From contig CM000430.1 in assembly GCA_000165345.1 (NCBI GenBank), forward strand, positions 704,001 through 768,000: a stretch of DNA of 64,000 bases. Direction: 5' to 3'. The stretch's first letter is position 1. Each line of letters starts with the position of its first letter. Positions 30,529 through 34,356 of this stretch are shown one piece after another. A model generated the notes under the pieces. That model was not told where the DNA came from, ran no database searches, and worked only from the letters and a program-made list of their open reading frames with translations. Position numbers and translations under genes: made by a program.

Positions 30529-33500
30529 ATGGAATCATCAAAGTACAAGCTATTAGAGACAGGATTTTGGAGTGAAATGCCATCAAAAATGAAGATAGAA
30601 TCACTAAAATCCCAAGAAATTAGTGGAGTAAAACAAACAAGTGTTGAGACAATGCATCCAATAATAGGGCAGGATCAATGGACAAATGGTATGGAATGCC
30701 TAATAAGTTCAGAAGGAAAAGATGGAAACTCAATTGATTCAAAAGATCTAGATAATAGCGAAGGATTAGTTGTTGTAGGCGGAGTAATTGAACAAAATAA
30801 GAACGAAATAATAGGAGGATTGGGTTTGGAATCTTCGGTAATTTCAATGAATAATGGTTTTGGTGGAGGTAATAATGATCCATTAAAAAGTTCGGATGAT
30901 TTAAGTATAGGATTGTCCCCAAAGAGGTCAAAATGCATGTTGAATGATGGTTTAGAGTTGGAGTCAGCAATAGCTACAAATGGTAGTGGGGTTGCAGGAG
31001 GTTCATGTTCAGCAGTAGGGAAATCTTCCCTAAAGTGGAATGGCGGAGGGACAGGTAGTAATAATGGTGGAATAGTGACACCATGTTCAGGCCAAGATAG
31101 CAGCCATATAGTGACTCCACCACCTCCAATGAACCATTCTTATCGACAACTTGGAAGTATGAATGCTTCAACAATATCAACAACTCCAACAAGAAGTATT
31201 CACCACAGTGCAGGGGTAGATGTTGACTTAGATTTGGATGTTGAAATAGATGAAGAGGAGATAGTTGATGATGAAGCAGATTTAAATAACCAAGATGAAC
31301 CTAATGTTGGTTTGAGTGGAAGCTCTCGGGCTAATAGCGACGTTGGAGGCGGCAGTGGAAATGGAGGAAGTGGCAGTGGGGGATCATTGTTTAGTGGAAC
31401 TCAGAACGGTATATTCTTCATTAAGAAGAACAATGGAGGTAATGGAGTTAATAGTCACCACCATCATCACCATAATCAAGGAGGAAGCGGTGGCCAGACA
31501 AAGCCAAGTGGAGGATTAGGAGTGACCCAAACTAGCGATCAGTATAAAAGCGGATACAAAGGTGTATCTTGGAATAAAAGGATGCAGAGTTGGCTGGCAT
31601 TTTGGACTGAGGGTCAAAGACGTAGAAGTAAGACTTTTAACTCTAAGATATATGGGTTTGATGTGGCTAGGAGCGAAGCAATAGCATTTTTGAAGGCAAA
31701 GCAAAGCGAATTACAGAGTATTGGTCAGCTTCCAAGTAAGAAATCAGTGCAATATATTCGTTCAAACATGGATGAATTATCATCTTTAAAGAGTATGAAT
31801 GGCATGTATTTATCAAATATGATTTCAGGAAGAAATTTGAATAGTATTGCGAGGCCAAAGTTTGGGGGTATTTTGAAATCGCAGAAAGGAGATATGCTTT
31901 GTGATTATGATGATGGGCATGAAGGAACTTCTTTAAGTGGAATTGGAGCAGTAATAGGAAACAATGAAACTAATGAGGGATTAATATTGGATAATTTGTC
32001 AGGTACAAATATAGTAAACAATGCTAGTAGTGGTAATAACAACTGCAATAATGGTGGCAACAACAGCGGAAATAAAGTTGGAAGTAGTGCTGGGAATAAT
32101 GGTAATGGAGGAGTTAGCAACAGTATTAGTAATGGAAACGGTGGTAGCAATTTTATTGGAATTAATAGCATTAAGATGGGAGGAGGAAGTAATTTGGGGG
32201 GAGATATCACTAATTTGGGAAATATGGGCCATATTCATCCTTTGATAGGGAATAATGATTTAATGAGTTCATTAGAAAATAAGGCACTGATCAACCACAA
32301 GTCATTATTTTCATCATATGGGGGAGGACTAGGAGGTGGTGATTCGGGAATGGTTAGTGGCAGTAATTTAGTAGAGAAGCTGGGCCTATCAAGAGTGGGC
32401 GTGAATGGGGGTGTAGGAACTGGCGGCGGATATGTAGGGATGATATACGATGATACTATGAACGGAGGAGGTATGAACGGATTGGGAATCATTGGAGGAG
32501 GTACAAATGCAGCAGCAGCAGCGGCAGTAGCCGCAGTGGCAGTGGCTTCCACAGGATCATCTTCATCTTCATCTCCTTTAACAGTATCAGGATCAACGCC
32601 AGGATCATCCATAGTAACATCAACTTCTAATTCAAATTCTGTATCTAATATTGGGCCAAGCACAGGCACTGGAACGGGTACGAGTTCAATTTCTACTTCA
32701 AATTCAAATTCAAATTCAAATTCAAGTTCAAATTCAAATTCCTCTACAATACCTATTTTAGGTGGAGGAAATGGTGGATCTACCCACAATTATTATTCAC
32801 TTTCAGACTTTAAATCTATGAATCCTACATCATCAATTAATTTTTATAACTCCATGACAGGTGGAGTAGGTGGAGGCCATGGAATTGGGATGGGAATGGG
32901 AAACAGGATAATACCAGGAATATCACCAGGAGTGATTCATCCAAAATCAACAGTGAGTGGTGGTAGCAGCAATGTTGGAAATGTTGTTCAAATGGAGGCA
33001 TATGATGATGCAAGTGGATTAAACAAGATAGCTCAGGGATTATTTGTTGGAGGATCTAGTGTAAGTGGTAGTGGCAATCCAGTTGGTGTACTTGGTGGAG
33101 GCCATACAAGTTCAGCAGTTACTGGAGTTGGTGGGTTTGCTCAGGGAGCTGCAGGAGGAGGGCAAGGAATAATGAATTTGACTGGAGGAAGTTTGATGGG
33201 GAATGTATTAATGATGAGTGGAAATGGAACAAACGGAGGAGGAGCTTCTGGAAATTGTGGGGGAGGGGGAATTGGAGGAGGTTTGGAAGCCAGTAATTCT
33301 GTATCATCATCAACCACTGCAACATCTTTACTACAGATGGCCTTGAATACAATTAATGATAATAGTATTAAGATAAATAACTATTTGAACAATGGGGTAC
33401 AACAGCAGCAGCAACAACAAAAACAACAACAGCAGCAACAACAACAGCAGCAGCAACAACAACAGCAACAGCAGCAGCAACAAATAAATGGGAATGGACA

Positions 33501-34356
33501 ATTACCAGGGGTGAGATTTGAAGATTCGAAATTGAAATCTGCGGGAATGGATGAAGCCAAACAAATGGTTTTAAATAGTACTTCAAGTAATCATGTCAAT
33601 AATTTGAATGGTTATTCAGGGGTAGAGTTAAACTCAGGAGGAGCTAGCAAAGGTGGAGGGAGTACTATAATTCATTCTTCTGGTACAAAACAGGTATTTG
33701 ATGAACATGGCAAAACTGTGTTAATGGGTGGGATTGCTTCATTATCATCTTCATCTTCATCTTCATCTTCCTCCTCCTCTTCCTCTTCCTCTTCAACTTC
33801 TCCTGCATCAAATTCTATTCTTCCAGGTACATCAGGTATTCCAACTCCTTCAACTGTGGCGTCATTGTTACCATCATTAGCATCACCATTATCAACATCT
33901 CAACATCAAAATCTTCAGCAAAAAAAACAGCAAATTCATCAGAATAATCATCAGCAATCTTCAGCTATGGTATCATCAATTTCTCCTACATCTCAATCTT
34001 CTCAATTAGTATCTCAGACCCCATCTTCGTCATCTTCATCGTCATCCTCCACTAATGCCAATAATAATACTTCAAAGTCAATTATGGGAGGAGATAATAA
34101 TAGTAGTGGTATTAGCAACAATACTATTGGAAATGAAGGATGGTCAGATGTATTTCAGTACAATAAATTGGTTAGTAATTCAATGAATTACACAATAAGC
34201 AGTTTGAATGGAGGAGGAATATGTGGAAACAATGATAAAGGAATTGAAGGAAGTATAACGACATCTGATATCAATAATACTCTAGGGAATTCGAATCTTT
34301 TAAATGCAGTGAGTATATTTGACAGTAAAATGGGGGATGAGAAAGCTGAAAAATGA
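30529..34356 (+). CDS. ApiAP2 transcription factor (1275 aa) with a single AP2 DNA-binding domain (about 31544..31705) in a very low-complexity Gly/Ser/Asn/Gln protein
   Basis: The AP2 domain is SGYKGVSWNKRMQSWLAFWTEGQRRRSKTFNSKIYGFDVARSEAIAFLKAK (compare the consensus RGVSWDKRRNRWRAxWxxNGKxKSKxFSVKKYGxEEAKxLA). There is a His tract HHHHHH, poly-Q (33403..33482, CAG/CAA), poly-Ser (33737..33800) and NS hexamer repeats (32695..32745). Confidence 0.8.
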   Translation: MESSKYKLLETGFWSEMPSKMKIESLKSQEISGVKQTSVETMHPIIGQDQWTNGMECLISSEGKDGNSIDSKDLDNSEGLVVVGGVIEQNKNEIIGGLGLESSVISMNNGFGGGNNDPLKSSDDLSIGLSPKRSKCMLNDGLELESAIATNGSGVAGGSCSAVGKSSLKWNGGGTGSNNGGIVTPCSGQDSSHIVTPPPPMNHSYRQLGSMNASTISTTPTRSIHHSAGVDVDLDLDVEIDEEEIVDDEADLNNQDEPNVGLSGSSRANSDVGGGSGNGGSGSGGSLFSGTQNGIFFIKKNNGGNGVNSHHHHHHNQGGSGGQTKPSGGLGVTQTSDQYKSGYKGVSWNKRMQSWLAFWTEGQRRRSKTFNSKIYGFDVARSEAIAFLKAKQSELQSIGQLPSKKSVQYIRSNMDELSSLKSMNGMYLSNMISGRNLNSIARPKFGGILKSQKGDMLCDYDDGHEGTSLSGIGAVIGNNETNEGLILDNLSGTNIVNNASSGNNNCNNGGNNSGNKVGSSAGNNGNGGVSNSISNGNGGSNFIGINSIKMGGGSNLGGDITNLGNMGHIHPLIGNNDLMSSLENKALINHKSLFSSYGGGLGGGDSGMVSGSNLVEKLGLSRVGVNGGVGTGGGYVGMIYDDTMNGGGMNGLGIIGGGTNAAAAAAVAAVAVASTGSSSSSSPLTVSGSTPGSSIVTSTSNSNSVSNIGPSTGTGTGTSSISTSNSNSNSNSSSNSNSSTIPILGGGNGGSTHNYYSLSDFKSMNPTSSINFYNSMTGGVGGGHGIGMGMGNRIIPGISPGVIHPKSTVSGGSSNVGNVVQMEAYDDASGLNKIAQGLFVGGSSVSGSGNPVGVLGGGHTSSAVTGVGGFAQGAAGGGQGIMNLTGGSLMGNVLMMSGNGTNGGGASGNCGGGGIGGGLEASNSVSSSTTATSLLQMALNTINDNSIKINNYLNNGVQQQQQQQKQQQQQQQQQQQQQQQQQQQQINGNGQLPGVRFEDSKLKSAGMDEAKQMVLNSTSSNHVNNLNGYSGVELNSGGASKGGGSTIIHSSGTKQVFDEHGKTVLMGGIASLSSSSSSSSSSSSSSSSSTSPASNSILPGTSGIPTPSTVASLLPSLASPLSTSQHQNLQQKKQQIHQNNHQQSSAMVSSISPTSQSSQLVSQTPSSSSSSSSSTNANNNTSKSIMGGDNNSSGISNNTIGNEGWSDVFQYNKLVSNSMNYTISSLNGGGICGNNDKGIEGSITTSDINNTLGNSNLLNAVSIFDSKMGDEKAEK

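Follow-up and report, generated by a model that had tools for sequence, protein, structure and literature searches.

The AP2-EXP/AP2-Sp-type ApiAP2 factor cgd2_3490 of Cryptosporidium parvum and the GCATGCA-type sites at its locus

The stretch of DNA analysed here (64,000 nt; GCA_000165345.1, contig CM000430.1, positions 704,001 to 768,000; hereafter the window, whose coordinates are used throughout) contains an open reading frame (ORF) for an ApiAP2 protein, identified here as cgd2_3490 of Cryptosporidium parvum. The ORF is a single one from ATG to stop, and its coordinates and its length of 1275 amino acids (aa) are exactly those given in a preceding sequence-only reading of the window. The cgd2_3490 promoter printed in the S6 file of Hasan et al. 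(PMC11078545), 577 bp long, matched window positions 29952-30339 at all 388 printed bases, and the intergenic region 5′ of the ORF is also 577 bp long. The order of the neighbours fits the published names from cgd2_3400 to cgd2_3580 (dynamin, SDA1, TERT, Myb/CHY, 3470, 3480, AP2, 3500, Cus1, 3520, 3530, PHD, NSP1, PrsW and Dus1), and their products contain telomerase RBD, UCH, Myb and CHY, DUF382/PSP (SF3b145/Cus1), PHD finger, Nsp1_C, PrsW, Dus, dynamin, Arf and SDA1 domains. The promoter identity, the 577-bp length and the neighbour names together assign the ORF to cgd2_3490 (cpbgf_2003490, also named AP2-F2 and ApiAP2-1), of C. parvum or of a strain indistinguishable from it there. The cgd2_3490 antigen fragment (982-1227 bp) spans the AP2 domain, located at nt 1021-1173 of the window gene, and no difference between this gene and the published cgd2_3490 was detectable, as upstream bases, intergenic length, neighbours and the position of the AP2 domain all agree. 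An identical protein is encoded at about 741 kb on contig CP029781.1 (992,414 bp) of GCA_031892065.1 and in several independent read-set assemblies; nine contigs carry it, and it was without variation at the four places examined among them.

Pfam placed an AP2 domain (PF00847) at aa 341-391, with an E value of 3e-11 and a score of 43.9 bits, above the gathering cut-off of 33.3; the match extends over positions 1-51 of the 54 in the profile. The sequence-only reading had described an ApiAP2 factor with one AP2 domain at about aa 339-392 and proposed a profile search to assign its orthogroup; the profile, the closest characterised AP2 domain (PF14_0633) and the fold all agree with it. Besides AP2, the Pfam scan of the protein (E up to 1) returned no ACDC domain and one sub-threshold match, to eIF3h_C (E 0.012, under its cut-off), which falls over the low-complexity poly-Q tract and was dismissed. 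The best PDB sequence match was 3IGM, the AP2 domain of Plasmodium falciparum PF14_0633 (E 7e-13; next best 7e-8), and the two have SGY-GVSWNKRM--WLAF and RRS-TF in common. The orthogroup signature SGYxGVSWNxRMxxWLAF...RRSxTF, common to the Plasmodium AP2-EXP-like library sequences, is thus present. An AlphaFold2 model of the domain, built from a 41-sequence alignment, had a predicted local distance difference test score (pLDDT) of 87 and E-E-E-H topology, in which the strands comprise model residues 14-17, 22-29 and 32-39, and the helix residues 45-66. The top 12 Foldseek matches in PDB were all apicomplexan AP2 domains, among them T. gondii mitoribosomal AP2 proteins, 3IGM and PfSIP2. Fold alignment with 3IGM gave 53% identity; a high root-mean-square deviation of the model to 3IGM is expected because the crystal is a domain-swapped dimer.

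In the PDB sequence alignment, N349, R351, R365 and S367 are each matched by the same amino acid in 3IGM. We take these to be the counterparts of the 3IGM base-contact residues, reportedly Asn72, Arg74, Arg88 and Ser90 (Lindner et al. 2010), in which case AP2-EXP and cgd2_3490 would have the same residues at all four contact positions. That four residues make base-specific contacts in 3IGM is confirmed, for their number only, by PMC9591056. An exhaustive HMMER search found 174 relatives, Plasmodium AP2-EXP-type sequences included, and the nearest named relatives after the Cryptosporidium orthologues were from Vitrella and Piridium. By its domain sequence, cgd2_3490 is assigned to the pan-apicomplexan AP2-EXP/AP2-Sp (PF14_0633) orthogroup, in agreement with the published phylogeny of PF14_0633/AP2-EXP, AP2-Sp and cgd2_3490 (PMC4117751).

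The sequence specificity with which the domain binds DNA had been determined before, so that the binding assay suggested in the sequence-only reading was answered by published data: on protein-binding microarrays, the cgd2_3490 AP2 domain binds [T/C]GCATGC[A/G] (PMC3734150; PMC4117751), the same specificity as that of PF14_0633 (PMC3734150; PMC4117751; PMC2965767). The motif, termed AP2_1, has long been known to be over-represented upstream of C. parvum genes (PMC3734150; PMC4117751; PMC12246861); the genes with an upstream excess number about 1,034 and belong to 55 expression clusters (PMC3734150). At least four C. parvum AP2 proteins bind TGCAT (cgd2_3490, cgd1_3520, cgd8_3230 and cgd5_4250), with expression of one or more of them at each time point (PMC4117751). 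The timing of expression, also proposed for checking, is likewise on record: cgd2_3490 is female-specific (PMC12246861), its transcript peaks at 72 h in published expression data, an antiserum to it is in use for staining female gamete nuclei, and a 2026 review lists it as a female-specific regulator. Hasan et al. (PMC11078545) described 65 co-regulated macrogamont genes whose promoters are enriched in TGCATG(T/C)(G/A), and cgd2_3490 itself follows this set under nine differentiation modulators.

The orthologous domains of P. falciparum AP2-EXP (PF14_0633, PF3D7_1466400; PDB 3IGM) and P. berghei AP2-Sp recognize the same in vitro site, TGCATGCA, but the Plasmodium factors serve sporozoite or blood-stage programmes, whereas cgd2_3490 is female-gamont specific. 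The predicted regulons of Plasmodium AP2-EXP and cgd2_3490 barely overlap (PMC2965767), the sequences outside the AP2 domain are unrelated, and the cysteine of WNKRMC in PF14_0633 is replaced by Gln in cgd2_3490 in the alignment. Within C. parvum, PF14_0633 has a second co-orthologue, cgd1_3520. Like cgd2_3490, it recognizes TGCAT/TGCATGCA, and its transcription is preferentially in the sexual stages; it differs in having the G-box as a further binding site, in its place on chromosome 1, and in that it did not follow the 65 female genes in their response to the modulators. AP2-F (cgd4_1110) is, as cgd2_3490, a female-specific ApiAP2 with an AP2_1-like motif (PMC12246861), but belongs to a different orthogroup, listed as 'ancestral', and its ablation blocks oocyst shedding; no such genetic evidence for cgd2_3490 was found in the searchable literature.

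The sequence-only reading had remarked on the abundance of GCATGCA in the window. Motif counts were compared with those expected from dinucleotide-preserving shuffles of the 64,000 nt. GCATGCA occurred 18 times against 2.78 expected (none of 100 shuffles reached 18), TGCATGCA seven times against 0.43, YGCATGCR seven times against 0.65, and TGCATGYR 25 times against 2.86. The excess of GCATGCA is wholly intergenic: the 19.4 kb of intergenic DNA contain seven clusters against 0.45 expected (reached in 0 of 300 simulations), and the 44.6 kb of coding DNA contain two against 2.17 expected, one of which overlaps a start codon. The abundance, and the identity of the element as a known ApiAP2-type site (AP2_1; PMC3734150), were both confirmed, and the six motif coordinates listed in that reading all lie on TGCATGCA or TGCATGYR sites (Table 1). 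Its description of the sites as candidate targets for this or a related AP2 stands on firmer ground than that reading could be aware of, since the cgd2_3490 domain binds [T/C]GCATGC[A/G]. Two details were modified: the site it gave as GCATGCA-type at 62683 is a TGCATGYR-type site with the sequence TGCATGTG, and the sites are immediately upstream of an ATG only in the cluster at 56755-56775 and at 27612-27622, where the motif overlaps the ATG, the rest being 230-960 bp away.

The divergent promoter between cgd2_3470 and cgd2_3480 contains a 22-nt composite element, GGCGCCAACATGTACATGCATA, which joins an E2F-like and an AP2_1-like motif (motif families as in PMC3734150). The element is invariant in the alignment of C. 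parvum, C. xiaoi and C. ryanae, whereas the AT-rich spacer around it has diverged; two further invariant blocks lie nearby (Table 1). The gene cgd2_3480 (27972-29951, +), directly upstream of the AP2 gene, is classed as female-specific in published tables with a log2 fold change of 4.0. All eight inhibitors shown brought it down and the inducer brought it up, the direction being that of cgd2_3490 for all nine modulators. From its promoter sequence and this co-regulation, cgd2_3480 is the best-supported candidate for a local target in the window, with in vivo occupancy of the window's sites being inferred. That cgd2_3490 and cgd2_3480 form a factor and direct-target pair, adjacent across the genus and acting via the composite at 27662-27683, is a tentative proposal that we consider rather doubtful. 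The promoter of cgd2_3490 itself has no canonical site, which makes autoregulation through such a site unlikely; for the 577-bp promoter we rejected this route, and expression of cgd2_3490 must be started by another factor.

The protein as a whole is dominated by Ser (222), Gly (209), Asn (133) and Gln (68), which together make up 49.6% of its residues, and 68.5% of residues lie in low-entropy 30-residue windows; the DNA encoding the low-complexity tracts is made up of simple 3- to 21-nt repeats. The tracts listed in the sequence-only reading were recovered for poly-Q (27 residues), His6 and the NS repeats, but the poly-S tract of 22 was not, the longest uninterrupted run being 17. Antisense ORFs within the gene (30620-30970, 31905-32210 and 32235-32789, minus) have repeat-derived translations and were set aside as by-products of the low-complexity coding repeats. 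The whole-protein homology search, made in a collection without C. parvum-clade proteins and in which low-complexity words probably swamped the candidates, returned only the orthologues of C. xiaoi (816 aa) and C. ryanae (844 aa); a search with aa 285-460 missed even these known orthologues, which was attributed to the word index, and was not used as evidence. In both species the gene is in perfect synteny (TERT, UCH, Myb/CHY, 3470, 3480, AP2, 3500, SF3b145, 3520 and PHD). The AP2 domain is carried by both orthologues and by a partial C. serpentis protein, so that orthologues lacking the domain, which the sequence-only reading would have counted against itself, were not encountered.

Compared with the C. 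xiaoi and C. ryanae orthologues, 473 of the 1275 residues (37%) are opposite gaps in both, among them the poly-Q tract, the poly-S tract and the majority of the G/S-rich stretches. The low complexity is thus largely a lineage-specific expansion, and the absence of poly-Q and poly-S from both orthologues argues against a conserved role of those tracts. In addition to the block around the AP2 domain, the protein shares ten short conserved islands with both orthologues, including MHPIIGQDQW, GLSPKRSKC, PPPxNHSY, STISTTP, the acidic DVDLDLDVEIDEEE, GIFFIKKNN, KSLFSxYG, VEKLGL and SLLQMALNTINDN. The earlier statement that AP2 is the only structured module therefore holds for known Pfam domains but not for conserved sequence. 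The acidic block GVDVDLDLDVEIDEEEI is a candidate acidic activation region; acidic activation domains in ApiAP2 proteins are described in PMC3712325. AlphaFold2 of the full C. xiaoi orthologue, from an alignment of three sequences, gave a pLDDT of 30 and left the AP2 domain itself unresolved. The 20 N-terminal residues of the annotated protein (30529-30591) are missing in C. xiaoi and C. ryanae, as the proteins of both begin at the position of Met21; judged from this alignment, the second ATG (30589, Met21) might be the true start in C. parvum.

Taken together, cgd2_3490 is very probably a nuclear, female-gamont-specific ApiAP2 transcription factor of the PF14_0633 orthogroup, proposed to act on promoters with TGCATGYR. 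In the proposed mechanism, the AP2 domain would fold as a three-stranded sheet packed on a helix, with the sheet placed in the major groove of the palindrome TGCATGCA and base contacts predicted from N349, R351, R365 and S367, the presumed counterparts of the PfAP2-EXP residues. The protein would probably bind the palindrome as a dimer, and would help to switch on macrogamont genes with TGCATGYR promoters, presumably as an activator. The remainder would consist of short conserved islands, the acidic block among them, split by G/S/N/Q low-complexity insertions that are specific to the lineage and most likely serve as disordered spacers.

Several observations weigh against this reading. TGCAT is also bound by cgd1_3520, cgd8_3230 and cgd5_4250, and AP2-F (cgd4_1110) is listed with an AP2_1-like motif. 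Most motif-bearing genes of the window are not female-like: in published tables, cgd2_3520 is asexual-specific and cgd2_3530, cgd2_3540 and cgd2_3570 are classed as 'unresolved', and cgd2_3560, which has the densest motif cluster, shows about zero transcripts per million in published RNA sequencing of HCT-8 cultures (it may be expressed solely in a stage missing from culture). None of the motif-bearing neighbours in the window is in the 65-gene female set, to which the region contributes solely cgd2_3490 and cgd2_3620, and neither C. xiaoi nor C. ryanae keeps the sites at 41465 and 44345. For cgd2_3490, the searchable literature yielded no data from chromatin immunoprecipitation (ChIP), knock-outs or reporters, so that its in vivo targets and activator polarity rest on correlation.

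Three other explanations were considered. The TGCATGCA sites of the window could mainly be occupied at other stages by the other TGCAT-binding AP2s (cgd1_3520, cgd8_3230, cgd5_4250 or AP2-F), with their closeness to an AP2 gene a coincidence of a motif common genome-wide; we give this a little less than an even chance. The sharing of TGCAT by four domains that between them cover every time point, the breadth of AP2_1 over-representation, the absence of motif-bearing neighbours from the female set, and the expression of these neighbours (asexual-specific for cgd2_3520, silent in culture for cgd2_3560, not settled for others) all speak for it. It fits less well with cgd2_3480, which is female-specific, tracks cgd2_3490 under nine of nine modulators and has in its promoter the region's only motif copy conserved in three species. 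It is also compatible with a female-specific role of cgd2_3490, as different sites may serve different factors.

Alternatively, cgd2_3490 could be a repressor or competitor at TGCATGCA sites in females, displacing activating AP2s of the asexual stages. The genes cgd2_3520, cgd2_3530 and cgd2_3570 are asexual-specific or go up when differentiation is inhibited, and Hasan et al. (PMC11078545) note that similar motifs are often bound by several AP2s in Plasmodium and Toxoplasma, with synergistic or antagonistic effect. However, the 65 motif-enriched genes rise and fall with cgd2_3490, which fits activation, and the conserved acidic block is more typical of activators, so that repression appears improbable. 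A third explanation takes up the suggestion of the sequence-only reading that the low-complexity tracts may drive condensate formation, and makes the G/S/N/Q tracts the functional core, concentrating the factor in nuclear condensates at clustered sites. It draws on the share of G, S, N and Q (half of all residues), on the tract of 27 Q and the run of 17 S, and on the clustering of some sites, such as those at 56560-56775. Given that 473 of 1275 residues, poly-Q and poly-S included, are gapped in both of the shorter orthologues, and that the tracts are coded by simple trinucleotide and hexanucleotide repeats, as from replication slippage, this too is regarded as unlikely.

Table 1. Features of the cgd2_3490 locus, in window coordinates.
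Feature	Position	Strand	Description	Evidence
TGCATGCATGC	27612..27622	.	Overlaps cgd2_3470 start codon (ATG 27620-27618, minus); 350 bp upstream of cgd2_3480
GGCGCCAACATGTACATGCATA (22 nt)	27662..27683	.	E2F-like TTGGCGCC (minus) and TGCATGTA (minus) in divergent cgd2_3470/cgd2_3480 promoter; TGCATGYR match at 27674-27681
CCACGTAA	27704-27711		Resembles an ACGT-core site; invariant in C. parvum, C. xiaoi and C. ryanae
TAATCCCACACAAA	27740-27753		Resembles a CACAC or G-box-like site; invariant in the same three species
Upstream region of cgd2_3490	29952..30528	+	577 bp; no TGCAT, no GCATG
AP2 factor coding sequence	30529..34356	+	Single ORF, ATG to stop, 1275 aa
Acidic block GVDVDLDLDVEIDEEEI	31213..31263	+	aa 229-245; 11 of 17 residues identical in three species	Alignment
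His6 tract	31456..31473	+	aa 310-315	Composition scan
Extended conserved block around AP2	31525..31746	+	aa 333-406; 67 of 74 residues identical in three Cryptosporidium species	Alignment
AP2 DNA-binding domain	31549..31701	+	aa 341-391; three beta strands and C-terminal helix	Pfam PF00847, PDB match, AlphaFold2 model
Poly-Q tract	33400..33483	+	Q7-K-Q20, 27 Q in 28 residues, aa 958-985; CAA/CAG repeats; not in C. xiaoi or C. ryanae orthologues
Poly-S run of 17	33745..33795	+	aa 1073-1089; within 85-aa insertion missing from orthologues
TGCATGCA	41465..41472	.	640 bp upstream of cgd2_3520 (minus strand)
ACATGCATGCA	44341..44352	.	Divergent cgd2_3530/cgd2_3540 intergenic region
TGCATGCATGCA	56560..56571	.	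Pair of palindromes that overlap; some 230 bp upstream of cgd2_3560 (PrsW-type protease)
Cluster of TGCATGCA and two TGCATGTA sites	56755..56775	.	25-40 bp upstream of cgd2_3560 ATG (56795)
TGCATGTG	62679..62686	-	Site given as 62683 in the sequence-only reading; adjoins GGCGCGCGCGCC run

Other observations were made at the motif sites and neighbouring genes. The palindrome TGCATGCATGC has ATG on both strands, so gene callers can take a motif copy for a start codon; one database record gives cgd2_3470 a 326-aa product with a start further downstream. The GC-rich run GGCGCGCGCGCC (62688-62700), in a region without a long ORF, stands beside TGCATGTG, combining E2F-like and AP2_1-like motifs as in the block at 27662. 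The sole TGCATGCA well within coding DNA (8334-8341) is in the dynamin-related gene cgd2_3400, which is classed as female-specific and goes up when the differentiation inducer is given. The densest TGCATGCA/TGCATGTA cluster (56560-56775) is 25-235 bp upstream of cgd2_3560 (56795-58150, +), which encodes a homologue of PrsW-family intramembrane proteases. The products of cgd2_3520 (39878-40825, -) and cgd2_3530 (41761-43386, -) have a weakly similar C-terminal region (BLASTP E 0.019), and both match the single gene at that position in C. xiaoi and C. ryanae (16795-17724 and 16942-17973), where no second gene is called; from this similarity, they may have arisen by an old tandem duplication in the C. 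parvum lineage. A copy of TGCATGCA is present in the 1.7-kb spacer beside this pair. In one database gene model, the ends of the AP2 gene and the convergent cgd2_3500 are about 72 bp apart (34357-34428); the model spans 34428-37242 for a 770-aa product with a weak Glyco_transf_90 match, and must therefore have an intron. An Rfam scan of the window gave no match.

In the domain-only comparison, the closest AP2 domains after those of Cryptosporidium (about 77-85 bits, roughly 50-63% identity) were in small metagenome proteins of 160-340 aa, each with one strong AP2 match. The contig that encodes one of them is eukaryotic and gene-dense, and also carries a histone cluster and genes for malate synthase and acetate kinase, which suggests a compact-genome protist or alga with an AP2-EXP-type domain.

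Earlier publications describe the gene together with its DNA-binding and stage specificities, and also the over-representation of the motif in C. parvum promoters. What the sequence-only reading rightly picked out was an ApiAP2 gene and the motif bound by its domain. The present analysis adds, as increments, the three-species footprint next to cgd2_3480, the motif-free promoter of cgd2_3490 itself and the extent of lineage-specific low complexity, and these could aid the design of ChIP, reporter or deletion experiments on cgd2_3490. Were cgd2_3490 and cgd2_3480 indeed a factor and its direct target, E2F/DP and the cgd2_3490 AP2 would cooperate on one compact module in female development, and cgd2_3490, with no such site upstream, would be switched on by a different regulator.

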